From an uncultured bacterium (GTDB taxonomy: Bacteria > Krumholzibacteriota > Krumholzibacteriia > LZORAL124-64-63), in the NCBI GenBank assembly GCA_963732385.1, contig CAVSZB010000003.1:416001-480000 (forward strand): a stretch of 64,000 nt of DNA, read 5' to 3'. The notes beneath the pieces are model-generated. The model ran no database searches. It saw only the letters and a list, made by a program, of their open reading frames with translations, and was not told the DNA's origin. The position numbers and the translations under genes are program-made. Positions within the stretch are counted from its first letter, which is position 1; each line of letters begins with the position of its first letter. This document shows, one piece after another, positions 1-13,828 of the stretch.

Positions 1-549
1 CAGGATGCTCGCCGTCACGAGTGCAATCGGCATGCCGCGCAGGATGCGCGGGGTGGCGGTCATGATGTCGAGCCGCTGGCGGATGCCGGCGAACAGCACC
101 ATCACGAGGCCGAAGCCGATCGACGAGCCCGTCGCGAAGACCACGGTCTTGAGGAATGAGAATTCCTTGGTAATCGACAGCAGCGCCGCGCCGAGCACCG
201 CGCAGTTGGTGGTGATCAGCGGCAGGTAGATCCCGAGCGCCTGGAACAGCCCCGGCGACACCTTGCGCACCACCATCTCCACGAACTGCACCAGCGCCGC
301 GATCACCAGGATGAACACGATCGTGCGCAGGAAGCCGAGGTGGAACGGCACCAGCAGCGAATAATACAGCAGCCAGCAGATCACCGAGGCGACCGTGATC
401 ACGAACACGACCGCCAGGCTCATGCCGACGGCCGATTCGATCTTCCGGCTGACGCCCAGGAACGGGCAGATGCCCAGGAACTGGGCCAGCAGGAAGTTGT
501 TGACCAGCATCGCCCACAGGACCAGCTGCAGATAGCTCGTGATCTCCAT
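1..549 (-). CDS. rnfA: Rnf electron transport complex subunit A (3' end outside window)
   Basis: Translated manually from ATG at 549: MEITSYLQLVLWAMLVNNFLLAQFLGICPFLGVS... and later LGIYLPLITTNCAVLG. Lies directly downstream of rnfE. Absent from the ORF track because its stop codon is outside the window. Confidence 0.95.
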   Translation of the reverse strand, partial: MEITSYLQLVLWAMLVNNFLLAQFLGICPFLGVSRKIESAVGMSLAVVFVITVASVICWLLYYSLLVPFHLGFLRTIVFILVIAALVQFVEMVVRKVSPGLFQALGIYLPLITTNCAVLGAALLSITKEFSFLKTVVFATGSSIGFGLVMVLFAGIRQRLDIMTATPRILRGMPIALVTASIL

Positions 550-550
550 G

Positions 551-1174
551 TCAGGCCCTCTCGCCCAGCCGCTTCACGCCGGCCATCAGCAGCCCGAGGG
601 TGAGGAACGCGCCGGGCGGCAACGTCATCACCAAAATCGGGCTGGCCTTGAAGCCGGCGCCCAGCGGCGCGATCTCGAACGGCGTGCCCGAAAGCAGCGT
701 GCCGTTGCCCAGCAGCTCGCGGATCACGCCCATCGCCACGAGGGCGATCATGAATCCGATGCCCATGCCCAACCCGTCGAGCGCGGAGCGCCAGACACCG
801 TTCTTGGAGGCGAACGCCTCGGCGCGCCCGAGGATGATGCAGTTGACCACGATCAGCGGGATGAACACGCCCAGCGCCTGGTGGAGGGGGAACATGAACC
901 CCTCCATGAGCAGGTCCACCATGGTCACGAATGAGGCGATGACCACGATGAAGGCCGGAATGCGCACGCCGTCGGGGATGAACTTGCGCAGCATGCTGAT
1001 GACGATGTTCGAGCAGACCAGCACGAAGGTGGCGGCCACGCCCATGCCGAAGCCGTTGAAGACCGTGGTGCTCGTGGCCAGCGCGGGGCAGGTGCCGAGC
1101 ACGAGGATGAAGAGGGGATTCTCCCTGATGAATCCCTTCGTGACCTCGCGGGCCGCGGTGACGTTCTCAGCCAC
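551..1174 (-). CDS. rnfE: Rnf complex subunit E
   Basis: ENPLFILVLGTCPALA, FIPLIVVNCIILGRAEAFASKN and LPPGAF motifs. Confidence 0.95.
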   Translation of the reverse strand: MAENVTAAREVTKGFIRENPLFILVLGTCPALATSTTVFNGFGMGVAATFVLVCSNIVISMLRKFIPDGVRIPAFIVVIASFVTMVDLLMEGFMFPLHQALGVFIPLIVVNCIILGRAEAFASKNGVWRSALDGLGMGIGFMIALVAMGVIRELLGNGTLLSGTPFEIAPLGAGFKASPILVMTLPPGAFLTLGLLMAGVKRLGERA

Positions 1175-1799
1175 TGACGCCTCCTTCGGCGGGCGCGGGG
1201 GGGGCGGCCGGCGCGGGGTCGCCCGGCGGCGCCGCCAGCCGCGGCGCGCTCTCGCGCATCGCCTTCACCGCCGCGTTGACCGCGCGGGTCACGCAGCGCG
1301 AAGAGATCGTCGCGCCGGTGATCGCCTGGATCGTGCCGCCGTCCTTGGTAACGCCCAGCCCCGGCGCCGGCGGCGTCAGGCCGCGGAACTGCCCGGAGAA
1401 CTTCTCCTCGCCCATCTTGCTGCCGAGGCCGGGGGTCTCCTTGTGCGCGAGCACCCGGATCGCGTGGACGGAGCCGTCCGCGAGCACCCCGACCATCAGC
1501 GTGACATCGCCGCCGTAGCCGCCGCGGTCGGTCACCTTGACGGCGGCCCCCATCAGCGCGCCGTCGCGGTAGGCGGGGTACATCTCGGGCTGGCCGGGGT
1601 CGAGCGCGGCCTTCGCCTGCGCGGCGTCGACCACCCGGTCGAATTCCGGCAGCACGGTCCGGATCGCCTGCTGCACGACGGCGGCGCGCGAGGCGGCGAT
1701 CGGGGCCTTGGTCACTTCGAAGACCGTGGCCAGCGTGGCGGCGGCCGCGGTGCAGATGACGGCGAGCACCAGCGCGTAGCGAACGAGCATCCGGATCAC
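1167..1799 (-). CDS. rnfG: Rnf complex subunit G (FMN-binding)
   Basis: N-terminal TM helix, GYGGDV, HKETPGLG and the flavinylation motif AITGATISS. The GTG start overlaps the rnfD stop (GTGA); alternative ATG at 1790. Confidence 0.92.
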   Translation of the reverse strand: MIRMLVRYALVLAVICTAAAATLATVFEVTKAPIAASRAAVVQQAIRTVLPEFDRVVDAAQAKAALDPGQPEMYPAYRDGALMGAAVKVTDRGGYGGDVTLMVGVLADGSVHAIRVLAHKETPGLGSKMGEEKFSGQFRGLTPPAPGLGVTKDGGTIQAITGATISSRCVTRAVNAAVKAMRESAPRLAAPPGDPAPAAPPAPAEGGVSG

Positions 1800-2875
1800 G
1801 ACGCCACCTCCGTGCGCGCGGTCACCGAACCGAACGTGCGCGGTCGCAGGTAGTGGTCGATCATCGGGGTGCCGGCGTTCATGAGCAGGATCGCGAAGCT
1901 GACCCCTTCCGGATAACCGCCCCAGAGGCGGATCACCGCGGTCAGCAGTCCGCAGCCGGTCCCGTAGATGAGCCGCCCCCGGAAGGTGATCGGGCAGGTC
2001 ACCATGTCGGTGGCCATGAAGAAAGCGCCCAGGATCAGGCCGCCCGCGAGTACGTGCAGGTGCGGCGCCAGGTAGTCCTGTGGTCCGCCCAGCACCCAGG
2101 CCGCGCCGGTCACCACGAACGTGGTGCCGATGAAGGCTGCCGGCACTTCCCAGGTGATGACCCGCTTCCAGAGCAGCAGAGCGCCGCCGATCAGCAGCGC
2201 GATGGCGCTGATCTCGCCCACGCTGCCGCCGAGGTTGCCGAAGAAGAGGTCGGCGCTGCTCGCGGAGAGTTCGCCCAGGCGCCCCTCCTTGAGCAGGCCG
2301 AGCGGCGTGGCTTCGGTGATCGCCGCGAGGTCGGAGCCCGGTGCGAGCCAGCCGCGGATGCCGGGCCGCAGCCAGGTCGTCATGTACGTGGGCCAGGAGA
2401 CGAGCAGGAAGACGCGCGCGGTCAGGGCCGGATTGAAGATGTTGCTGCCCAACCCTCCGAACAGGTGCTTGGCGACGACGATGGCGACGATCGCCCCGCA
2501 CAGGATCAGCCACCACGGCGCGGTGGGCGGCAGGTTCATGCCGAGCAGCAGGCCGGTTACGACGGCCGACCAGTCGGACAGCGTGCCGGGCGTGCGCATC
2601 ACGCGCAGGCAGAGCCACTCCACGCCGACGCAGAAGAGCGTGGAGAGCGCCAGCACGCGCAGTGCCGATACGCCGAAGAACCAGAGCGAGACCGCGGTTG
2701 CAGGCAGCAGCGCGATCAGCACCCAGCGCATGATCCACGGCACCGTCTCGGGCGAATGCAGGTGCGGCGCGGGGCCGACGTGCAGCGCCGGGCGGGCGGG
2801 AGCGGCGACCGGCGCGGGGGCGCGCGGGGCCGCGGCGGCGGTCCCCTCAGGACCTGGCTTTGGACTTGCGGTCAT
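1796..2875 (-). CDS. rnfD: Rnf complex subunit D
   Basis: AKHLFGGLGSNIFNPAL, ITEATPLG (FMN Thr), GAFFMATDMVTCP, GYPEGVSFAILLMN. Confidence 0.95.
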   Translation of the reverse strand: MTASPKPGPEGTAAAAPRAPAPVAAPARPALHVGPAPHLHSPETVPWIMRWVLIALLPATAVSLWFFGVSALRVLALSTLFCVGVEWLCLRVMRTPGTLSDWSAVVTGLLLGMNLPPTAPWWLILCGAIVAIVVAKHLFGGLGSNIFNPALTARVFLLVSWPTYMTTWLRPGIRGWLAPGSDLAAITEATPLGLLKEGRLGELSASSADLFFGNLGGSVGEISAIALLIGGALLLWKRVITWEVPAAFIGTTFVVTGAAWVLGGPQDYLAPHLHVLAGGLILGAFFMATDMVTCPITFRGRLIYGTGCGLLTAVIRLWGGYPEGVSFAILLMNAGTPMIDHYLRPRTFGSVTARTEVAS

Positions 2876-4211
2876 GGACCTTCGCCTTGCCGAGCCTCAA
2901 CGTCTGGACGAGCCAGCGATTAGAGGGGCAGATGTACGCACAGGATCCGCACTCCATGCATTCCTGGAGATGCAGCGCCTCCGCGGTGTCGAGATCCACG
3001 ATCTCCACCCGCAGCGCCAGTTCGCTCGGCTGCAGCCCGAGCGGGCAGGCCTCGCCGCAGCGGCCGCAGCGGATGCAGGGGTGGGGGACCGGGTCGGGCA
3101 CGTCGTCCCGGGTGAAGAACAGCAGACCCGAAGTGGCCTTGACGACCGGCACGTCGAGGTTGCCGAGGGCGGCGCCCATCATCGGTCCGCCGGCGATCAC
3201 GCGTGTCGGCGGCGAACTCAGACCGCCGCAGAACTCGAGCACTTCCGGCAGCGGCGTTCCCAGGCGCACGCGCAGGTTCGAAGGGCGGCAGACGGCCGAC
3301 CCCGACACCGTCAGGACCCGCTCGATGAGCGGGATCCCCTCTCTCACCGCACGGGCGACCGCGGCCGCCGTACCGACGTTCTGCACGACGACGCCCACGT
3401 CCAGCGGCAGCCCCGGCGGCGGCGGCACCTCGCGGCCGGTGAGGGCCTGGATGAGCTGCTTCTCGGCCCCCTGCGGGTACTTCACCCGGCAGCCGACCAC
3501 CTCAATGTCGGGATGGCCGGCGAAGGCGGCGGTCAGCTTCGCGATGGCGTCGGGCTTGTTCTGTTCGATACCGACGATCACGCGCGGCGCGCCGAGCACG
3601 CGCTGGAGGATGCGCACGCCGTGGACCACGGCGTCGGTCTCCTCGAGCATCGTGCGGTGGTCGCAGGTGAGGAACGGTTCGCATTCGGCGCCGTTGATGA
3701 TCAGCAGGTCGATCGTCTTCCCGGCGGGCGGCGACAGCTTGACGTGCGTGGGGAAGGCCGCGCCGCCGAGGCCCACCAGGCCGGCCGCCTGGATCAGCGC
3801 CTTCAGTTCGGCGGGGCTCGCCTGCTCATAATCCGGCCGTGCGTCCGGCAGGCGCCACGGCGGCGGCGGCCACGGCGCGCCGTCGACACCGGTGTCGCGG
3901 GCCTCGATCTCGACGCTCTCGCACGGGAACCCGCCGGGATGGAGGCGCGGACCGATGAAGGTGACCTCGCCGGCGATCGGCGCGTGCACCGGCGCCGAGA
4001 CGAACCCGGCGGCCTCCGCCACCGGCTGTCCTTCCGCCACGCGGTCGCCGACCTGCACGAGCGTCCTGGCCGGCACGCCGAGATGCTGGCGCAGCGGCAG
4101 CCGCACGCGCAGCGGCGCCGGCATGACACGGATCGGCTCGTGCTCGGTGAGGTGTTTGGCCTCGGGGGGGTGGACCCCGCCCCGGAACGTGTGCGAGATG
4201 GCCATGGTCAT
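2847..4211 (-). CDS. rnfC: Rnf complex subunit C
   Basis: TFRGGVHPPE, GLVGLGGAAFPTHVKL, NGAECEPFLTCD, YPQGAEKQL and two 4Fe-4S motifs (CIRCGRCGEACP, CMECGSCAYICP). Start is 4211 or 4205. Confidence 0.95.
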   Translation of the reverse strand: MTMAISHTFRGGVHPPEAKHLTEHEPIRVMPAPLRVRLPLRQHLGVPARTLVQVGDRVAEGQPVAEAAGFVSAPVHAPIAGEVTFIGPRLHPGGFPCESVEIEARDTGVDGAPWPPPPWRLPDARPDYEQASPAELKALIQAAGLVGLGGAAFPTHVKLSPPAGKTIDLLIINGAECEPFLTCDHRTMLEETDAVVHGVRILQRVLGAPRVIVGIEQNKPDAIAKLTAAFAGHPDIEVVGCRVKYPQGAEKQLIQALTGREVPPPPGLPLDVGVVVQNVGTAAAVARAVREGIPLIERVLTVSGSAVCRPSNLRVRLGTPLPEVLEFCGGLSSPPTRVIAGGPMMGAALGNLDVPVVKATSGLLFFTRDDVPDPVPHPCIRCGRCGEACPLGLQPSELALRVEIVDLDTAEALHLQECMECGSCAYICPSNRWLVQTLRLGKAKVHDRKSKARS

Positions 4212-4392
4212 CGTGCCGGAGGCTAGGGTCGGAACCGGTGACGCCGGCGCGCCTTCAGTTCCCGCATTGCGCGGACCGCGGCTGTTCCTCCACCCCACCC
4301 GCCGCGAAAGCTAGTATCCGCACGGACGTTTCCCAAGAAAAACCGGGGCAGGTGTGCACGGGCAAGTCCCGGTCATTCCATGTGATATGGGC

Positions 4393-5337
4393 TCAGCCGG
4401 CCAGTCGGCAACCCAGGGCGATCGAGAGGAATTTCGACTCTTCGGTGTCGGCGCGGCTGGTCAGCACGCAGGGGGCGGAGGTGCCGATCACGATCCCCGC
4501 CAGGCGGCCGCCGGCGAGCAGCGTGGCGCACTTGTAGAAGACATTGCCCGCGGCGATTTCGGGGAAGATGAGGATGTCCGCGGCGCCGCCCACCGGGCTC
4601 GACAGCTCCTTGATCGCGCAGGCTTCGGGCGAGAGCGCCACATCGAGCGCCAGCGGTCCGTCCACGATCGCGTCGCCGAGCTGTCCGCGGTCGGCCATCT
4701 TGGCGATGATCGCGGCATCGAGCGTTTCGGGCATCTTCTCGCTGACCTTCTCGTTCGCGGCGATCAGCGCGGCGCGTGGCCGCTCGATCCCGAAACTGCG
4801 CGCGGCCAGGATGCAGTACTTCAGGATCTTCGCCTTTGTGGCCAGGTCGGGCCGCGGGATGATGGCGACATCGGACACGAACAGCAGCTTGCCGTGCGTC
4901 CGCTGGTAAGCGGGGATGTCGAGCACCGCCAGGTGCGTCAGCACATTCCCGGGCGCCAACAGCCCCCTGTCTTTGTCGAGAATCAACCTCATGTACTTGT
5001 CGGTGCCGAGGAGCCCCTTCATCAGCACGTCGGCCTGACGTTCGCGCACGAGGTCGCGCGCGCGGATGCCGGCCGCGGCCTGGTCGGGCTCGTCGATGAT
5101 CGTAAAGAGGGTGGCGTCAATGTCGCGTTGCCGGCACAGGTCGAGGATCTTCGTCTGGTCGCCGACGAGGATCATCTCGGCGATGCCCTCCGCCGCCGCG
5201 CGCGCCGCGGCCTGGATGGAGTTGGGGTCGTGCCCCGCCGCCACCGCCACGCGCCGGGGCCGGACCGGCGTGGCGGAGGCGCGGCTGACGGCCTGCAGCG
5301 ACTCCACGAGCTGGTCGAGTGTGCGGATCGGGTTCAT
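4393..5337 (-). CDS. ptb: Phosphate butyryl/acyltransferase (PTA_PTB family)
   Basis: ADVLMKG, DGPLALDVALS, GNVFYK and an intact VLTSRAD catalytic motif; adjacent to butyrate kinase. Confidence 0.9.
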   Translation of the reverse strand: MNPIRTLDQLVESLQAVSRASATPVRPRRVAVAAGHDPNSIQAAARAAAEGIAEMILVGDQTKILDLCRQRDIDATLFTIIDEPDQAAAGIRARDLVRERQADVLMKGLLGTDKYMRLILDKDRGLLAPGNVLTHLAVLDIPAYQRTHGKLLFVSDVAIIPRPDLATKAKILKYCILAARSFGIERPRAALIAANEKVSEKMPETLDAAIIAKMADRGQLGDAIVDGPLALDVALSPEACAIKELSSPVGGAADILIFPEIAAGNVFYKCATLLAGGRLAGIVIGTSAPCVLTSRADTEESKFLSIALGCRLAG

Positions 5338-7550
5338 CGCGCCTCCTCCGGCGCGTAGACACGCGCCGCCTCCTTGCCCTGCAGGACGCGCAGGGCCCCC
5401 TTGACGAGGGCGGTCATTTCGTTCTCGCCAGGATAGACCGTCACGCCGCAGCCCAGCGCGGAGACCGAGCGCTCGATCATGTCCACCAGCAGTTGCGAAC
5501 GCGCCAGCCCGCCGGTGAGCAGGACGCGGTCGACCGGCTCGCCGTCGAAGGCCGGCACCAGCGCCGCGATGTTCTTGCCGATCTGGTAAGCCATCGCCTC
5601 CACGACCGCGGTCGCTTCAGGATCGCCGGACAGCACGCGCTGTTCCACCTCGCGGAAATCGGCGGTGCCGAGCAGGTCGATCAGGCCGCCGCGTCCCTTG
5701 TTGAGCTGCTTGAGCTCCGCGTGGGTGTAGCGCCCGGAGAAACAGAGATCGATGAGCTGGCCGGGTGGCAGCGAACCGGAGCGCTGCGGCGTGAAAGGGC
5801 CTTCGCCGTTGAGGCCATTGTTGACGTCGATGTAGCGTCCGTGCTTGTGCGCGCCGACCGTGATGCCGCCGCCCATGTGGCAGACGATCAGGTTCAGGCT
5901 CTCGTAGAAGTTCTCGTGTTCCTCGGCATAGCGCCGCGCGGTGGAGATCTGGTTGAGCGCGTGGCTGACGACCACGCGCCGGAGCGCCTTCAGGCCGGTG
6001 ATTTTTACCCGGTCCGGCACCTCGTCCACGACGACCGGATCGACAATGAACGCCGGCTTGCCGGTGCCCGTCACCAGTTCGTGCGCGATCAGAGCGCCGA
6101 GGTTCGAGGCGTGGTCGCCGCCGACGCCGCCCAGCAGGTCCTCCCGCATGCGGCTGTTCACGGCGTAGGTGCCGTGCGGGATCGGCCGCAGGACGCCGCC
6201 GCGTCCCGACACCGCGTCGAGATCCGCCACGCCGAGCTGATGCGCGGCGAGGGCGGTGAGGATGACCTCCTTGCGGAAGCCGTACTGCGCCATGATGCTC
6301 TGTCCCTCGAACGGCGCCAGTTCGGCGGCGGTGTGCGTGAGTTCGGCCGTGAAGACCTCCTGGTCCCCCTCGTAGACGCCGATCCTGGTGGAGGTCGAGC
6401 CGGGGTTCACCGCCAGGATGCGGAAGCGGCGGCAGAACGTGTCGAGCGGCGTGCGGCTCCAGTGCCCGAAGCGGTGCAGGCGCAGCACGCTCGCCTTGAC
6501 CGCCAGGCGGGCGTCCTCGGTGGCGCAGTCGAGCGGCAGGTCGACGCCGCGAAAGCGCAGTCCGAACATCACCGGGAACTTCTTCGATTCGGGGAAACGC
6601 GAAGCGTACAGATGGTAGAGCAGGTTCCCCATGTCGAGGTTCGGGCAGATGAGGGCGTTCGTGCCGCCGGCCAGCTCGGCATCTTCGGCATGGTAGTAGG
6701 TGGCGGAGCGGCGCGAGAGCGCCACGCTCACCTTCACGGGCCCGTGGATGCGGATCGACGCGTAGCGCGCGCCGACGGCCACGCGCTTGGCCAGGATTCC
6801 GGGCACGAGCGCCATGGCGTCGCGCACGAGGTCGGCTGCCGGCCCCTCGTCCGCGCCGCGGTGCGAGTACGATACGATGGCGCCCTTGATGACCGGCAAC
6901 ACGTCCTCGGGGATAAGGTCGCGCGCCACGGCGCAGGTGCCGACCGCGCAGTGAGCGAGAATCTCGGGCGTCATGGTGCCGTTCACGCCCACGTCCCCGA
7001 ACACGACGATGTTGTGGGGGAAGACGTCGCCCGGAAAATCGTCCGGCAACACGAATACGCCGGCCTCGCACTGGATGCGTTGCATGTGCAGCAGGCGCAG
7101 CATCGGTCGGAAATAGTCGCGTGGCTCGTGGTCGGCGCCGCCGACGACCATGTCGGCGTGGCCGAGCCGCACGCACATGATGCCGAACTTCGCCGGTTCG
7201 TACACCAGCGCCCGGGCTTCGTCTAGGGTGCGCGCCCGCGCCATCTCGGGCGGCAAATCGAGACAGGCGCGCGCGAACTGTTCGCGCAGATCCGCCCGCT
7301 CCTCGATGTCGATGAACGTGCTCTCGGCAAGCGTGAAACGCACCCTGGTTGAGTCGAGGTGGCACAGATCGCGCGCGATCACCTCGCGCACGGCCGCCTC
7401 GGGCGCGAGGAACACCGGACGCACGAAGCGGGTGAGGTGACACGCAGCCTCGATGATCCGCGGATCGAGCGGCTCGATAAAGACCACCGTGGGGCGGTTC
7501 TTCATGTGGGCCAGGATCTGGGTGTCGAGACTGTTCTCGAGGTCGTACAT
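5334..7550 (-). CDS. buk: Fusion of an N-terminal Pta-like domain (degenerate active site) and a C-terminal butyrate kinase
   Basis: The C-terminal half has ILAVNPGSTST, GRGG, HASNLG, VDPVVVDE, HALNQ, HMGGGITV and GPFTPQRSG. The N-terminal ~370 aa are Pta-like (LICPNLDMGNLLY). Start taken at MYDLEN (7550), preceded by GGAGG. Confidence 0.88.
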   Translation of the reverse strand: MYDLENSLDTQILAHMKNRPTVVFIEPLDPRIIEAACHLTRFVRPVFLAPEAAVREVIARDLCHLDSTRVRFTLAESTFIDIEERADLREQFARACLDLPPEMARARTLDEARALVYEPAKFGIMCVRLGHADMVVGGADHEPRDYFRPMLRLLHMQRIQCEAGVFVLPDDFPGDVFPHNIVVFGDVGVNGTMTPEILAHCAVGTCAVARDLIPEDVLPVIKGAIVSYSHRGADEGPAADLVRDAMALVPGILAKRVAVGARYASIRIHGPVKVSVALSRRSATYYHAEDAELAGGTNALICPNLDMGNLLYHLYASRFPESKKFPVMFGLRFRGVDLPLDCATEDARLAVKASVLRLHRFGHWSRTPLDTFCRRFRILAVNPGSTSTRIGVYEGDQEVFTAELTHTAAELAPFEGQSIMAQYGFRKEVILTALAAHQLGVADLDAVSGRGGVLRPIPHGTYAVNSRMREDLLGGVGGDHASNLGALIAHELVTGTGKPAFIVDPVVVDEVPDRVKITGLKALRRVVVSHALNQISTARRYAEEHENFYESLNLIVCHMGGGITVGAHKHGRYIDVNNGLNGEGPFTPQRSGSLPPGQLIDLCFSGRYTHAELKQLNKGRGGLIDLLGTADFREVEQRVLSGDPEATAVVEAMAYQIGKNIAALVPAFDGEPVDRVLLTGGLARSQLLVDMIERSVSALGCGVTVYPGENEMTALVKGALRVLQGKEAARVYAPEEAR

Positions 7551-7740
7551 CGGTCCCTCCCGCGGCGAGGGGGCGGCGGTCCGGCGACGGCGGCGGCGGT
7601 CTTCTAACCACAATAGTCACCCACGGGACGCGGTTTATCAACTTCAGCGACTCGCCGGCGGCGGTGCTCCGCCATTATTAATGTGGAAAAGCCGTCCGGG
7701 GCCGTGGCACGATCGGGGAACGTCTGCGGGTTTGTCGCCG

Positions 7741-9771
7741 GTGATCGGGGAGGCTGCGATCAGTAATTCAGGGAAGGCTGCGTTTGCCGCGCATGGAGCG
7801 CCGGGGGCGCCGGGGAAGTCCGCCCTGGTGGCCGCGGGCGAACGGCGCCTGGCCGGCGTGCTGGGCGCCGTGCCCGAGCGCTGGCTGCTGGTGAGCACGC
7901 ATTACCAGCGGCTGCTGCTGATCCGCAGCGGCGCCGTGGCGCGGCAGTACCGCGTGTCCACCGGCGCGGCCGGCGTGGACGGCCGCGAGGGTTCGGGCGG
8001 TACGCCGCCCGGCGTGCACACCATCGCCGCCCGGATCGGCGACGGCGAACCGGTCGGCGCGGTTTTCCGCGACCGCGTGGCCACGGGCGAAGTGTGGTCG
8101 TCGGCAGCGGCGGGCGGAGTGTCCGGCCCGGCCGCCGAACTCATTCTGACCCGCATCCTCACTATCGAGGGCTGGGAGCCGGGGGTGAACCGCGGTCCCG
8201 GCTGCGACAGTCTCGCCCGCTACATCTACATCCATGGCACCGATGACGAGGCGCGGCTCGGGCAGGCGGTGTCGCACGGCTGCGTCCGCCTGGCCGGCGA
8301 CGACATCGCCTCGCTCCACGACGAAGTGCAGGTGGGGGATCCGGTCGTCATCCTGCCGGATCGTCCGCTGCGCTACCACTTCGCCGGCATCGCCGGCAGC
8401 GGCATGAGTGCCCTGGCTCAGTACCACGTACTCGGCGGGGGGCTCTGCAGCGGAAGCGACCGGGCGTTCGACGCCGGTGAGAGGGGCGAGATCCGCGAGC
8501 GGCTCGAGGCGCTCGGCGTGGTGATCGCGCCGCAGGACGGCAGCGCGCTCGCTCCTGTCGCCGCGGGTGGCGCCGACGCCGCGTCTCCCGACTGCGACGG
8601 CCTCATCGTCTCGAGCGCCGTCGAGGAGAGCGTGCCCGACGTAGCCGCGGCGCGGCGGCTGGGCGTGCCGGTGCTGCACCGCTCCGAACTGCTGGCCCGA
8701 TGCGTCGACGAGCGGCAGACCGTCGCCGTGGCCGGCACGAGCGGCAAGTCCACGGTCGTGGCGATGATCTTCGAGATCCTGCGCGGCTGCCGGCGGGACC
8801 CCTCGGTCATCACAGGTGGTGAACTGCGGCTGCTGCAGGGCGAAGGGCTGCTTGGCAACGCCTGGGCCGGTCGCGGCAAGATGCTGGTCATCGAGGCGGA
8901 CGAGAGCGACGGCAGCGTGACCCGCTATGCGCCGTGGGCCGGCGTCCTGCTGAACATGCAGCGCGACCACAAGGAACTGGCCGAGCTGGCGGCGATCTTC
9001 GCGGCCTTCCGGCGCAACGTCCGCGGACCGTTCCTGGTCGGCGAGGACGAGAATCTCGCGCCGTTCGCGGCGAACGCCACCCGCTTCGGTTTATGCGAGA
9101 CCTGCGCCGTCCGCGCCCAGGATGTCCTGCTCACTCCCGACGGCGCGCGTTTCTCGGTCGCGGGGGTGCGTTTCACGCTGCCCGTTCCGGGCAAGCACAA
9201 CGTGAGCAACGCCGTCGCCGCTCTGGCCGTTTGCCAGGCGCTCGGACTGCGCTTCTCGCAGATGGCCGCCCCGCTGGCGCGGTTCCAGGGGGTGGCGCGG
9301 CGCTTCCAGATCGTGGGGCGCGCGCGCGGGGTGGAGGTCGTGGACGATTTCGCTCACAACCCCGACAAGATCGCGGCCGCTCTCTCCACCGCCCGTGCCC
9401 GCGGCAGGCGGATCCTCGCCGTCTTCCAGCCGCACGGCTTCGGCCCGACCCGCTTCCTGCGCGACGATCTCATCGCGGCGTTCACGCGCGGCCTGCGGCC
9501 GACCGATCGGCTGTATCTTCCGGAGATCTTCTTCGCCGGCGGCACCGTTACGCGCGACATCTCGTCGCACGATATCGCCGCGGCGGTGGCGGCGCGCGGC
9601 GTGCCGGCGCTCTTCACCGAGCGGCGCGACGACATCGTGCCGTCGATCGCCGGCGAGGCGCGCGAGGGGGATGTGATCCTGGTCATGGGCGCGCGCGATC
9701 CGTCGCTCACCGACTTCTGCCGACGGATTCTGGCGCGTCTCGAGGCGCGCGGCAGCGACGAACGGCGCTAA
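7741..9771 (+). CDS. Fusion of an L,D-transpeptidase (YkuD) domain and a UDP-MurNAc-peptide ligase (MurC/Mpl family)
   Basis: YkuD motifs: YRVSTG, TPPG, IYIHGT...SHGCVRL. Mur ligase motifs: HFAGIAGSGMSALA, AGTSGKST, EADESDGS, PGKHNVSNA, DDFAHNP, VFQPH. One continuous frame; start uncertain (7681-7828). Confidence 0.85.
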   Translation: MIGEAAISNSGKAAFAAHGAPGAPGKSALVAAGERRLAGVLGAVPERWLLVSTHYQRLLLIRSGAVARQYRVSTGAAGVDGREGSGGTPPGVHTIAARIGDGEPVGAVFRDRVATGEVWSSAAAGGVSGPAAELILTRILTIEGWEPGVNRGPGCDSLARYIYIHGTDDEARLGQAVSHGCVRLAGDDIASLHDEVQVGDPVVILPDRPLRYHFAGIAGSGMSALAQYHVLGGGLCSGSDRAFDAGERGEIRERLEALGVVIAPQDGSALAPVAAGGADAASPDCDGLIVSSAVEESVPDVAAARRLGVPVLHRSELLARCVDERQTVAVAGTSGKSTVVAMIFEILRGCRRDPSVITGGELRLLQGEGLLGNAWAGRGKMLVIEADESDGSVTRYAPWAGVLLNMQRDHKELAELAAIFAAFRRNVRGPFLVGEDENLAPFAANATRFGLCETCAVRAQDVLLTPDGARFSVAGVRFTLPVPGKHNVSNAVAALAVCQALGLRFSQMAAPLARFQGVARRFQIVGRARGVEVVDDFAHNPDKIAAALSTARARGRRILAVFQPHGFGPTRFLRDDLIAAFTRGLRPTDRLYLPEIFFAGGTVTRDISSHDIAAAVAARGVPALFTERRDDIVPSIAGEAREGDVILVMGARDPSLTDFCRRILARLEARGSDERR

Positions 9772-10877
9772 CGCACCAGCGCACCGGCCGCCAGCTCGCG
9801 TCCCGCTCCGGTCAGCGTCAGCGCGCCGGCCTGCTCGCTCACCAGTCCGCGTTGTCCGGCGGCGCGCACCACGCGCGCCGCGAACTCCGGCGCCCAGCGC
9901 AGATGATCGTGGAGGTGGTCCACGCGGCTCTCGACCGCCTCTTCGGGCGTGCCGGCGTGCTGGGCGAGATGGATGGCGAGCATGGCGAGGGCGAATTCGA
10001 GGCGCTGCCGCGCCCGGCGGCGGGCCTGCACGAGGAGGCCGCGTTCCGGGGCGAGCGCCAGCGCCAAAGCGAAGACGACGCCGGTCATCGTGGCCATCGA
10101 GCCGGCGATCGAGGCGTCGAGCAGGTGCGCCATCCAGTAGCCGCCCAGGGCGGCCGCCACGCCCAGCAGCACGCTCAGTCCGATCATGGCCGGCAGCCGG
10201 TCGGTCAGCAGGTAGGCGGCAGCAGGCGGTCCGATCATCAGCGCCACGACCAGGATGAGGCCGACCGCGTCGAACGCCCCGACCGCCGTGACCGACACCG
10301 CGCCCATCATGCCGTAGTGGATCAGCGCCGGCGCGAAGCCGAGCGCCGCCGTCAGACCCGGGTCGAACGACGCCAGCTTGAGCTCCTTGTAGAACACCAG
10401 CATCAGCAGGCCGTTCAGGGCGAGGATGCCGCCCATCATCCAGAGCGCGCGCGGGCCGAGGTCGACGCCGGCCGCGCGCAGGCGCTCGAACGGCGCGAAC
10501 GCCAGCTCGCCCAGCAGGACAGCGTCGATGTCGAGGTGCACGTTGCCGGCGTAGCGCGAAATGAGGATGACGCCGAGGCTGAACAGCGCCGGGAAGACCA
10601 GCCCGATGGCGGCGTCCTCGCGGACGCGTCCGGTGCGCTGCAGCAGCTCCACGAGGGCGACCGTCAGCACGCCGGTGGCTGCGGCGCCCAGGACGAGCCA
10701 CGGCGAGGCAAGATCGCCGGTGGCGAAGAAGGCGACCACGATGCCGACCAGGATCGAGTGGCTGATCGCGTCGCTGAGCATGGCCATCCGGCGCAGCACG
10801 AGGAAGACCCCCGGCAGCGCGCAGGCCGCGGCGGTCACGGCGGCGATGGCCTGGATCTCGAACTGTGGCTGGGTCAC
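9768..10877 (-). CDS. Mn/Zn/Fe ABC transporter permease (TroD/MntD-like) with C-terminal wHTH-like tail
   Basis: GVFLVLRRMAMLSDAISHSILVG, FYKELKLASFDP; GTG start coupled to the upstream stop. Confidence 0.9.
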   Translation of the reverse strand: MTQPQFEIQAIAAVTAAACALPGVFLVLRRMAMLSDAISHSILVGIVVAFFATGDLASPWLVLGAAATGVLTVALVELLQRTGRVREDAAIGLVFPALFSLGVILISRYAGNVHLDIDAVLLGELAFAPFERLRAAGVDLGPRALWMMGGILALNGLLMLVFYKELKLASFDPGLTAALGFAPALIHYGMMGAVSVTAVGAFDAVGLILVVALMIGPPAAAYLLTDRLPAMIGLSVLLGVAAALGGYWMAHLLDASIAGSMATMTGVVFALALALAPERGLLVQARRRARQRLEFALAMLAIHLAQHAGTPEEAVESRVDHLHDHLRWAPEFAARVVRAAGQRGLVSEQAGALTLTGAGRELAAGALVR

Positions 10878-12034
10878 GTCGCGACCTCCCCGTCCGGCGT
10901 TTCGCCCCGACCGGCGTGATCGCCGGCGACCAGCGCCCGCGCCGTCGCGACCCCCGCCAGGGTGAGCGCCCAGGCGTCGTCGCCGGCCGGGCGCACCAGG
11001 CCGCGGCCCTGCAGCGCCGCGAGGGCGCGCCGCGCGCCGGGTCCGGTGCCCATCGCGTGCAAAACGGCGCGCGCGTGCGGAGCCTCCTCGGGACGTTCGT
11101 GCTGGGCGGCGAGGTGGTAAAGGTTGGCCAGGACGGTGTCGGCGTGCAGGCGGCGCCGCGCCCGCTGGTTGCGCGCCGCCTGCCACAGCAGGCCGCGGTT
11201 TGGCGCGCAGGCGAGCGAGAACGCCACGATCGCCGTCGCGCACAGGACGATCACCGGGCCGGTCGGCAGGCGCGCCGTGAGGCTGCTGATGATCGCTCCG
11301 CCCACCCCGGCCGTCGCGCCGAAGATCGCCGAGAGAACGATCATCCGGCCGAGGCGGTCGGTCCACTGCCGCGCGGCCGCGGCCGGCGCCACGATCATCG
11401 CGCTCATCAGCACGACCCCCACCGTCTGCAGGCCGCTCACGATCGCCACGACGAGCAGCGTGGTCAGCAGCACATCGAGCCGGCGGGCCGGGAAGCCGAG
11501 GCTCGCCGCGAAATCGGGATCGAAGGCCAGCAGTTTGAATTCCTTCCAGAGGACGAGCACCACCACGAGCGCGGCGGCGCCGAGCACCGCCATGCTGATG
11601 ACGTCGCGCGCGAGCAGCGTGGCCGCCTGTCCGAACAGGAACTTGTCGAGGCCGGCCTGGGTGGCGTCGGGTCGTCGCTGGATGAAGGTGAGCAGGACCA
11701 TGCCGAAGCCGAAGAATACCGACAGCGTCAGGCCGAGCGCGCTGTCGGCCTTCACGCGCGACGAGCGCAGGATGCCGCCGATCAGCAGCGTGGCGAGCCA
11801 GCCGGCCGCCGCCGCGCCGAGCACCAGCACCAGCGGCGCCTTGCTGCCGGTCAGGAGGAACGCGAGGGCGATGCCGGGCAGCGCGGCGTGCGAGATGGCG
11901 TCGCCGAGCAGGCTCTGGCGACGCAGCACGGCGAAGGCGCCGAGCGCCCCGCTGGCCAGTCCGAGCACGCCCGAGCCGAGCGCCACGGTGCGCAGCGTGT
12001 AGTCGAACAGGAGGTCGTGCAGCAGCTTGCCCAT
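10874..12034 (-). CDS. Mn/Zn/Fe ABC transporter permease (TroC/MntC-like) with C-terminal wHTH-like tail
   Basis: GAFAVLRRQSLLGDAISHAALPG, WKEFKLLAFDP, PTGPVIV. Confidence 0.9.
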   Translation of the reverse strand: MGKLLHDLLFDYTLRTVALGSGVLGLASGALGAFAVLRRQSLLGDAISHAALPGIALAFLLTGSKAPLVLVLGAAAAGWLATLLIGGILRSSRVKADSALGLTLSVFFGFGMVLLTFIQRRPDATQAGLDKFLFGQAATLLARDVISMAVLGAAALVVVLVLWKEFKLLAFDPDFAASLGFPARRLDVLLTTLLVVAIVSGLQTVGVVLMSAMIVAPAAAARQWTDRLGRMIVLSAIFGATAGVGGAIISSLTARLPTGPVIVLCATAIVAFSLACAPNRGLLWQAARNQRARRRLHADTVLANLYHLAAQHERPEEAPHARAVLHAMGTGPGARRALAALQGRGLVRPAGDDAWALTLAGVATARALVAGDHAGRGETPDGEVAT

Positions 12035-12041
12035 CAGGCCC

Positions 12042-12866
12042 TCACACCCGCCCGCGCCCGCCGGTCGGCGTGGCCGTGTCGTCGCTGCCGCCCGCCGCGC
12101 CCGGGCCGTCGGGCGCCAGGAAACCGACGCGCCCGCCGTACGCCAGGCGCAGATTCTGCTCCGTAAAAGCCGTCGCCACCGGACCGCTGGCGATGCGGCG
12201 CACGTTGAGCAGCGTGACCCAGTCGAAGTACTCCGGCACCGTCTGCAGGTCGTGGTGCACGACGACGACCGTCTTCCCCTCCGCGCGCAGGTCCTGCAGC
12301 AGGCCGATGATGGCCCGCTCCGTGCGCGCATCGACCCCCTGGAACGGTTCGTCCATGAAATAGACCTGCGCCTCCTGCACGAGCGCGCGCGCCAGGAAGA
12401 CCCGCTGCTGCTGCCCCCCCGACAGCTGGCTGATCTGACGGCCGCGGAAGTCGGCCATGCCGACCTTGGCCAGCGCCTCGAGGGCGAGGTCGCGCTCGCG
12501 GCGCCCCGGGCGGCGCACCCAGCCCAGCGCGCCGTAGCGTCCCATCATCACGACGTCGAGCACGGTCGTGGGGAAGTCCCAGTCGACGCTGCCGCGCTGG
12601 GGCACGTAGCCGACGATACCGCGCTGCTGCGCGTATGGCCGGCCGTGGATCAGCACCTGCCCGGCCGCCGGCCTGACGAGGCCGAGGATCGCCTTCATGA
12701 GCGTGGTCTTGCCGGCGCCGTTGGGCCCGACGATCGCCATCAGGATGCCGGGCGGCACGGCGAGGTCGACGTCCCACAGGACCGGGCGTTCGCGGTAGGC
12801 GACGGTGAGGTCGGCCACCTCGATCGCGAAGCTGGCGGTGGTGGCGGCGCTGGCGTGGACGTTCAT
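12042..12866 (-). CDS. Metal ABC transporter ATP-binding protein (TroB/MntB-like)
   Basis: Walker A GPNGAGKT, signature LSGGQQQR, Walker [24 protein letters not shown]. Confidence 0.93.
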
Positions 12867-13828
12867 GGCGTCTCCGGAGGGGTGAGGAGCCCCGCGACGA
12901 TCGTGTCGATGTTGTGGCGCACCATACCGGCGTACGTCCCCGCGGGGGAGCCGCGGGCGCCCATGGCGTCCGAGTAGAGCGAGCCGCCGATGCGCACCGC
13001 GAAGCCGCGCGCCCGCACCGCGGCCCGCACCGCCTCGATCGCGCGCGGCGATACCGAGGTCTCCACGAACAACGCCGGGATCCGGCGCTCCGCGATCAGC
13101 GCCGCCAGCTGCTGCACGTCCGCCGTGCCGGCCTCGGCGGCGGTGCTGATCCCCTGCAGTCCGCGCACCTCGAACCCGTAGGCGCGGCCGAAGTAGTTGA
13201 AAGCGTCGTGCGCCGTGATCAGCACCCGCTGCGCCTGCGGCACCCGCGCCGCCTGGACGCGTACGTAGGTGTCGAGCGAGTCGAGCGTCGCCAGATAGCG
13301 GTCGGCGTCGGCGCGATATTCCGCCTCGCGGTCGCGATCGGCCACGATCAGCGCGTCCAGCACCCGCGTCGCCGCCTCCCGCCACAGCATCACGTCGAAC
13401 CAGATGTGCGGGTCGTGAGCCCCCTTGAAGGCGGCCGGCGCCAGCAGCTGCGCCTCCGGGATCCGTTCCGCCACCGCCACCGTGCGGATCCGCCCCTGCA
13501 TCCGCTCGAATACCCGCGCCAGCCGCGCCTCGAGGTGCAGCCCGTTGTAGAAGACGAGGTCGGCCTCCTGCAGCCGCTGCACGTCCCCCTCGCTCGCCTT
13601 GTAGAGGTGGGGATCGACTCCGGGCCCCATCAGGGCGCGCACCCGCACGCGTTCGCCGCCGATGTTCAGCGCGATGTCGGCGATCATGCCGGTCGTGGTG
13701 ACGACGTTGAGGTGGCGCGGGCCGCCAGCGGTCTCATCGCGGTTGTTCCGCGCGCAGCCCGCGGCGGCTGCCGCGAACAGGGCGAGCACGATTGCCAGGA
13801 ACACGACCGGTACACGTTCCGCCCTCAC
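12863..13828 (-). CDS. Metal ABC transporter substrate-binding lipoprotein (TroA/MntA-like)
   Basis: Lipobox-like [29 protein letters not shown] and LYSD metal ligands. Confidence 0.93.

Follow-up and report, generated by a model that had tools for sequence, protein, structure and literature searches.

Butyrate kinase (Buk) and phosphate butyryltransferase (Ptb) are the standard marker pair for fermentative ATP formation. The transferase fold of the phosphotransacetylase Pta is also found without its catalytic role in the hybrid malic enzyme MaeB, whose PTA domain has no PTA activity and binds acetyl-CoA via R535, K538, R581, N718, Y721, K722 and Q683; in the R535A/E and N718D variants, binding and inhibition are both lost (PMC7902834, in excerpt). 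In a canonical Pta, that of P. gingivalis, the single substitutions S311A and R312A abolished or strongly lowered activity (PMC6461089, in excerpt). The excerpted text of the Geobacter metallireducens genome paper mentions separate buk and ptb genes and MaeB only (PMC2700814). We analyse here a gene of an uncultured bacterium in which a Pta-like domain is fused to butyrate kinase, directly followed by a standalone ptb. It lies in a window of 64,000 nucleotides (the whole stretch of DNA that was analysed; contig CAVSZB010000003.1, positions 416,001 to 480,000, assembly GCA_963732385.1). The predicted design is a butyrate kinase carrying a non-catalytic Pta-like domain, and full-text searches found no published description of a Pta-like/Buk fusion, Ser-Arg-keeping forms included. 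The features concerned are the following.

5334..7550, minus strand: fusion gene, Pta-fold domain plus butyrate kinase, 738 amino acids (open reading frame and translation, Pfam and NCBIfam matches, AlphaFold2)
7555..7561, minus strand: Shine-Dalgarno-like GGGAGGG, with a 4-nt spacer to the ATG at 7550
6426..7550, minus strand: N-terminal Pta-fold domain, residues 1-375, predicted non-catalytic (PTA_PTB match, Foldseek, ratio of nonsynonymous to synonymous substitution rates, dN/dS)
7089..7151, minus strand: motif VVGGADHEPRDYFRPMLRLL, residues 134-154, with R148 (Pta R133) kept and S127/S128 replaced by E/P
6720..6746, minus strand: HGPVKVSVA, residues 269-277, the counterpart of DGELQVDAA, with Pta Q244 replaced by K273, invariant in the clade
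6525..6542, minus strand: degenerate catalytic motif DLPLDC, D337-C342, the counterpart of DLSRGC (D307-C312) of M. thermophila Pta
5334..6425, minus strand: butyrate kinase domain, residues 376-738, and the stop codon (TIGR02707, Foldseek match to 1SAZ)
5334..5337, minus strand: ATGA overlap of the fusion stop codon and the ptb start codon, read from the sequence and suggesting translational coupling
4393..5337, minus strand: standalone phosphate butyryltransferase Ptb, 314 amino acids, with an intact TSRAD (CVLTSRAD) and a PTA_PTB match of 146.6 bits

A sequence-only reading of this DNA had proposed one 738-residue open reading frame with a Pta-like and a Buk half, leaving its strand unstated; the frame itself and the Pfam and NCBIfam matches bear this out, on the minus strand. 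The longest open frame covers 5334..7613 (minus strand) and encodes 759 residues from a TTG, and the ATG at 7550 gives the 738-residue protein, whose N-terminus MYDLE is the same as in homologues. Pfam PTA_PTB (PF01515) matches residues 17-332 with 81.3 bits against a gathering cut-off of 24, and NCBIfam TIGR02707 (butyrate kinase) matches residues 377-729 with 430.4 bits against a cut-off of 289.1, spanning profile positions 1-349 of 351. The models for functional Pta score far lower on the N-domain, TIGR00651 with 77.4 bits against 311.2 and NF007233 with 88.5 against 310. An AlphaFold2 model of the fusion, built from an alignment of 57 sequences, reached a predicted local distance difference test (pLDDT) of 90.1 and a predicted template modelling score (pTM) of 0.84. 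Searched with Foldseek, its kinase half superimposes on T. maritima butyrate kinase 2 (1SAZ) with a target template modelling score (TMt) of 0.91, a root-mean-square deviation of 1.5 and 47% identity, and its N-terminal half on the Pta structure 1QZT_B (TMt 0.85) and on the MaeB PTA domain 6ZN9 (TMt 0.82); none of the Foldseek matches listed is a solved structure covering both halves, and the ESM Atlas search returned generic PTA_PTB clusters only, with scores of 0.90-0.91. By family and fold, the C-terminal half is a full-length butyrate kinase, for which activity with acyl-phosphate and ADP is predicted.

Absence of the fusion from relatives had been named as one finding that would speak against the first reading. 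The opposite was observed: the same uninterrupted architecture recurs in 86 of 90 genomes from the family to which the window belongs and, among the 120 best database matches, in 114, so that the fusion is not an assembly artefact. No public sequencing run was found that holds half or more of the sampled words of the stretch. Most of the gene is covered by contigs 90-99% similar to the window, which come from two sediment DNA runs and from two metatranscriptome libraries belonging to a single study. A sediment-DNA contig (X1 record 4) and a metatranscriptome contig (X19 record 21) span the domain junction, and one sediment-DNA contig (X1 record 3) and two metatranscriptome contigs (X18 record 10 and X19 record 18) span the junction between fusion and ptb. 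The contigs from RNA libraries are a weak hint that the fusion is expressed, and do not prove transcription.

Residue equivalences were taken from a HMMER alignment to M. thermophila Pta (1QZT), in which the published numbering was reproduced. Along the catalytic motif, D307, L308, S309, R310, G311, C312 and D316 of Pta correspond to D337, L338, P339, L340, D341, C342 and D346 of the fusion; elsewhere, R133, S128, Q244, N279, Y282 and K283 correspond to R148, P143, K273, N309, Y312 and H313, the GNIAYK of M. thermophila Pta reading GNLLYH here (residues 308-313). Each of the changes that the sequence-only reading had listed, DLPLDC, HGPVKVSVA and GNLLYH, reappears in this alignment. The loss of the Pta catalytic pair that it had claimed also holds beyond the window: P339 and L340 stand in place of Ser309 and Arg310, and a Ser-Arg at 339-340 occurs in 0/114 relatives, these being the full-length proteins (700-770 amino acids) among the 120 best database matches listed. 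Position 339 is Pro in 98, Ala in 15 and Thr in one, and position 340 is Met in 111 and Leu in three. D341, D346, R148, K273 and N309 are each present in 114/114, D337 in 113/114, and position 312 is Tyr or Phe.

Five proteins with the PTA_PTB fold are encoded in this 3.8-Mb genome. Besides the fusion and its neighbour Ptb, they comprise a canonical pta-ackA pair (C7:1090904-1093074), a third Pta-like gene of 344 amino acids beside obg (C7:270733-271680; L003:1441-2475) and a hybrid malic enzyme MaeB that carries a silent PTA domain of its own (L002:40-2469; C8:211779-212729). The catalytic motif reads NDLSRGC in the Pta, CDLSRGC in the second Pta-like protein, NVISYNS in the MaeB PTA domain, LTSRAD in Ptb and VDLPLDC in the fusion N-domain.

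The altered domain is not a relic, and purifying selection on it is as strong as on the kinase domain and on Ptb. In six pairs compared by the Nei-Gojobori method, dN/dS was 0.08-0.24 for the N-domain, 0.16-0.29 for Buk and 0.15-0.24 for Ptb. Mean identity to the query among the 114 relatives is 67% for the N-domain (62-89%) and 73% for the kinase half, and positions at least 99% identical number 94 of 375 in the former and 119 of 363 in the latter. Because residues whose loss cripples Pta are missing throughout the clade, a separate Ptb lies next door and purifying selection is strong, the best reading is that of an N-domain predicted to be dead for the Pta reaction yet functional.

The neighbouring Ptb would supply the transferase activity. 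Its motif, said in the first reading to be intact, is indeed CVLTSRAD, and S294, R295 and D297 do not vary among 42 relatives; its NCBIfam scores (TIGR02706, 287.1; NF004472, 303.4) are both under the respective cut-offs. Directly downstream of the fusion, ptb is found in 13/14 of the Ser-Arg-lacking loci from species genomes (group B, below). In the window's family it occurs downstream, on the same strand and at kinase-length distance, in 75/88 N-domain places; the other 13/88 lie mostly less than about 2.7 kb from a contig start, or the contig ends first, and three of them (G125, G128 and G129) were not individually confirmed. At 17% identity and on far-apart tree branches, the adjacent Ptb is, as judged by sequence, not a copy of the N-domain. 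A triple fusion pseudo-Pta-Buk-Ptb had been suggested by open frames of about 1,069 residues. This candidate was rejected, since the long frames are alternative reading frames that happen to lack stops in high-GC DNA (the G+C content of the window is about 70%): Ptb is in another frame in all three loci retrieved, L107, L108 and L109, and in L107 the fusion stops after 739 amino acids and ptb begins at its stop codon.

The distribution of the fusion was followed at several scales. A phylum-level sample of 208 genomes, the window's own included, was searched for the N-domain at E<=1e-25; it is mostly single-copy in the 86 positive genomes of the family, the four misses are 59-81% complete, and none of 117 genomes from eight other families carries it. 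Near relatives bear the source labels Thermoanaerobaculaceae, Thermoanaerobaculales, Acidobacteriota or Terriglobia, and one 93%-identical metagenome-assembled genome (MAG) is labelled Fibrobacteraceae, so the labels disagree. An exhaustive search of representative proteins gave 40 clusters at E<=1e-30, followed by a gap down to ordinary Pta near 1e-16. In a scan of species genomes with the N-domain alignment, 26 of 68 loci (L039-L064) belong to the fusion family and the rest are ordinary Pta with E>=4e-17. By motif and by synteny in tblastn, the frameshifted assembly L041 being excluded from the motif table, these fall into three groups, for which identities are given relative to the fusion of the window.

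Group A, 9 loci: Myxococcota- and 'Rickettsiales'-titled MAGs and Desulfatibacillum alkenivorans DSM 16219; D[FY]SR and E[LM]Q kept; N-domain identity 35-39%; adjacent ptb 0/9
Group B, 14 loci: the window and 13 others, including Eremiobacterota and Spirochaetales MAGs; without Ser-Arg; N-domain identity 47-93%; adjacent ptb 13/14
Group C, 3 loci (L054, L056 and L064): Zixibacteria, UBP14 and one further MAG; degenerate; N-domain identity 36-39%, kinase half about 70%; adjacent ptb 0/3

A search for the same architecture and for ptb/rnf synteny had been proposed with the first reading; the architecture and the linkage to ptb were both recovered, and the linkage to rnf in the two closest relatives only. 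The exception in group B, L050, lacks an adjacent ptb and has a good Ptb homologue elsewhere in its genome, and in L043 the downstream Ptb homologue is more distant (34% identity) and cut by the contig end. With the window Ptb as query, a Ptb homologue at E<=1e-10 is absent from 3/6 group A genomes searched. Good Ptb homologues lie elsewhere in two of the three group C genomes, the third having a weak match only, and tandem Ptb-like genes were also observed elsewhere in two of the three. Group C reads GD for GN and VDLDEK, VDLARE or VDLSID at the catalytic motif, and its N-domain sits on a long branch; the domain may have entered a second and more rapid phase of decay there, or have changed its function. 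In L041, a MAG contig with an N-domain 96% identical, fusion and ptb are split over several frames, likely by assembly frameshifts. One representative protein, P0153 (905 amino acids), combines aldehyde dehydrogenase, 4Fe-4S and bacterial microcompartment (BMC) shell domains with a following fusion-type PTA_PTB domain, 41% identical over query residues 109-322, which hints either that the fusion-type Pta subfamily also occurs in microcompartment loci or that genes were wrongly called as fused.

Two quick IQ-TREE trees, the first with 51 rows and a Ptb root and the second with 39 rows and a Pta root, agree on the order of events. All fusion-type N-domains form one starred clade in both, with group A, which keeps Ser-Arg, basal; groups B and C together make one starred clade, group C being nested in B on a long stem. 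At the base of the Ser-Arg-lacking clade stand two half-way states, P0125 (DFSK, hence S-K) and P0128 (DFAR, hence A-R). Since the Ser-Arg-lacking forms make one starred clade, a single change of motif state is indicated, and on these trees Ser-Arg loss is derived. The ancestral Pta-like/Buk fusion would have been bifunctional, and group A, we infer, is its still-bifunctional form.

From these observations a course of events may be proposed, in which an ancestral bifunctional Pta-Buk enzyme would have handed its transferase job to a recruited Ptb. One lineage would have gained a canonical Ptb beside the fusion, lost the Ser-Arg pair and kept the domain under selection. The coupled Ptb would convert short or branched acyl-CoA and phosphate into acyl-phosphate, from which the kinase domain would form ATP. 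The old transferase domain would keep its cleft, with R148, N309, Y/F312, D337 and D346 retained and K273 and D341 newly fixed; this cleft may bind coenzyme A (CoA), acyl-CoA or acyl-phosphate and so tune or organise the kinase, in the manner of the dead PTA domain that regulates malic enzyme in MaeB. We put at about even the chance that the pseudo-Pta domain is kept as such a ligand-binding regulatory or assembly module, the ligand being a CoA-ester or acyl-phosphate. A more specific version is tentative and rather doubtful: by analogy, the Pta fold would here have become an allosteric sensor for a second time, independently of MaeB, and would act on its own former pathway partner, the domain reading the acyl-CoA/CoA or acyl-phosphate pool and gating ATP formation by butyrate kinase while Ptb does the chemistry, with active, half-dead (S-K, A-R) and dead forms extant in different phyla.

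Several observations weigh against this scheme. The four canonical motif segments hold only a slight excess of invariant positions (27/82 against 67/293, Fisher p=0.08, for relatives that are non-independent), so that conservation does not point to the cleft in particular. The Ser-Arg-keeping fusions lack the R133 equivalent and often D316, which makes the activity of group A itself a presumption. The group C N-domain is fast-evolving without an adjacent ptb, so the domain can drift in some lineages. Finally, the invariant K273 and D341, together with the retained D337 and D346, could equally make up a rewired active site.

Three other explanations were weighed on the same evidence. Pta and Ptb enzymes dimerise via their second subdomain, and the dead domain might accordingly pair with the coupled Ptb and tether it to the kinase for direct passing of the labile acyl-phosphate, perhaps donating K273 to the Ptb site. 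Such a scaffold, which we consider unlikely, would profit from the equimolar synthesis of fusion and Ptb favoured by the ATGA coupling; it fits their near-universal adjacency (13/14 and 75/88) and their alike divergence across the family, with 66-72% identity for Ptb and about 67% for the N-domain, and in M. thermophila Pta it is the other subunit whose Q244 and K257 contact CoA (PMC9706017, in excerpt). Homology does not, however, imply a heterodimer between two proteins 17% identical on distant branches, and the clade B fusion of L050 does without an adjacent ptb, its Ptb homologue being encoded elsewhere. That the fold tolerates catalytic rewiring follows from the use by Ptb enzymes of another Asp than Pta (PMC9706017, in excerpt), and the N-domain might still perform acyl transfer, by the Pta or a related reaction, through K273, D341, D337, D346 and H313, leaving Ptb to serve other acyl chains. 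The altered motifs are fixed as catalytic ones would be, with K273, D341, D346, N309 and R148 invariant among the 114 relatives, and dN/dS is as low as in true enzymes. This appears quite unlikely, since both residues that cripple Pta when singly mutated are replaced, by Pro/Ala and Met/Leu, the loss of Ser-Arg coincides with the gain of a separate Ptb, and the models for functional Pta give 77-88 bits where 310-311 are called for.

The domain could also be an entrenched legacy of the ancestral fusion that binds no ligand and serves only to let the kinase fold or oligomerise. Its invariant positions do not cluster in the cleft motifs but are scattered across the entire domain, the pTM of 0.84 suggests that the two domains pack in a fixed arrangement, and the PTA domain is also the oligomerisation core of MaeB, a hexamer of PTA dimers (PMC7902834, in excerpt). 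A purely structural role is nonetheless improbable to a similar degree, because near-invariant polar residues of ligand-binding type (R148, N309, D337, D346 and K273) exceed the needs of packing, and because the kinase half of group C, still about 70% identical despite a drifting N-domain, seems tolerant of change in it. The preferred reading thus remains that of a ligand-binding regulatory or assembly module.

Downstream of ptb lie genes of an Rnf complex.

1..4298, minus strand: rnf genes, namely rnfC 4298..2847, rnfD 2875..1796, rnfG (FMN_bind in open reading frame 2738..1167), rnfE 1174..551 and rnfA 549..1, the last running off the window (Pfam, NCBIfam)

The gap between ptb and rnfC is 94 nt, in which no terminator-like site was seen on the minus strand. 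The first reading had remarked that the fusion sits upstream of rnf; the position holds in the window, in the order fusion, ptb, rnfC, and a meaningful link does not, for rnf comes after ptb in no more than three loci, the window and its two closest relatives (L039 and L040), and is missing from that place in 11 other group B loci. No rnf match lies within about 6 kb after ptb in L041. Flanks of other loci differ, with malic enzyme, gamma-glutamyl transpeptidase, acyl-CoA dehydrogenase or DUF881/DUF1290, and six other loci share no conserved pathway genes. Rnf was therefore rejected as a part of the module. In physiological terms Rnf and the module may plausibly be linked, with ferredoxin re-oxidised by Rnf when amino acids are fermented, but the genomic link is not a conserved one.

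On the other side of the fusion, window positions 7453-9771 (plus strand) hold a 772-residue frame that joins an ElsL-like L,D-carboxypeptidase (YkuD, residues 143-300) to a MurC/Mpl-like Mur ligase (residues 308-749), with 119.6 bits for NF040925 and 288.8 bits for TIGR01082, both under their cut-offs. Its true start is probably further downstream, as a start at the ATG at 7453 would lay 98 nt of this frame over the beginning of the divergent fusion gene. It is possibly a single-protein unit for recycling of cell-wall peptides. Positions 9768-13828 (minus strand) encode a metal ABC importer of Zn/Mn type (ZnuA/ABC-3/ABC_tran) with two ABC-3 permeases, an ATPase and a ZnuA-like binding protein.

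A whole family, together with members of other phyla, thus carries a butyrate kinase with an extra, strongly conserved domain that is predicted to be a pseudo-enzyme, in proteins that databases call 'butyrate kinase' only. If CoA esters are indeed sensed by this domain, no regulatory device would have been described for butyrate kinase before it, and the Pta fold would have a second use as a sensor. The series from Ser-Arg-intact forms without ptb, through half-degenerate ones, to degenerate forms with ptb would offer a natural case of a domain turning into a pseudo-enzyme after the takeover of its task by a non-orthologous relative. In metabolic reconstructions of these common sediment and soil bacteria, the N-domain should not be counted as Pta.

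Among known systems, MaeB (B. bacteriovorus 6ZNG/6ZNT/6ZN9) offers the closest parallel in kind, and the analogy drawn by the sequence-only reading is apt to that extent: a Pta fold that lost catalytic residues in the same motif (NVISYN in the MaeB of this genome) is fused to a working enzyme. MaeB R581, N718 and Y721 were equated with Pta R133, N279 and Y282 by sequence spacing rather than by structural alignment of MaeB; their counterparts are kept here as R148, N309 and Y/F312, in a domain predicted to bind a ligand. At the positions of K722 and Q683, the fusion has H313 and K273 instead. Whereas the MaeB domain is C-terminal to malic enzyme, the one described here is N-terminal on butyrate kinase, its own former pathway partner; it loses S309/R310 and keeps D307/D316, where MaeB deviates at V746 and Y576, and the two domains, at about 20% sequence identity, are not grouped in the tree. 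With canonical Pta (M. thermophila 1QZT, P. gingivalis 6IOW) the domain shares fold and motif order, but it lacks Ser-Arg, is 22-30% identical, is fused to a kinase instead of being encoded by a separate gene and falls far under the Pta model cut-offs.

The group A fusions (L060 of D. alkenivorans DSM 16219; L057-L059 of Myxococcota MAGs) have the same domain order, the M[FY]D[IL]E start, the GG and GNLLYH variants and the RTPxDxFF linker, and belong to the same starred clade; unlike the fusion of the window, they keep D[FY]SR and E[LM]Q and have neither an R133 equivalent nor an adjacent ptb. The clostridial ptb-buk pair (C. acetobutylicum Ptb/Buk; T. maritima Buk2 1SAZ) comes closest in chemistry, with the same two predicted reactions and a kinase 47% identical to Buk2, and the conserved Ser, Arg and Asp described for C. 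acetobutylicum Ptb (PMC9706017, in excerpt) are all present in the adjacent Ptb. The locus departs from that pair in its order of kinase then ptb, in its overlapping genes and in the additional pseudo-transferase domain of 375 residues carried by the kinase.

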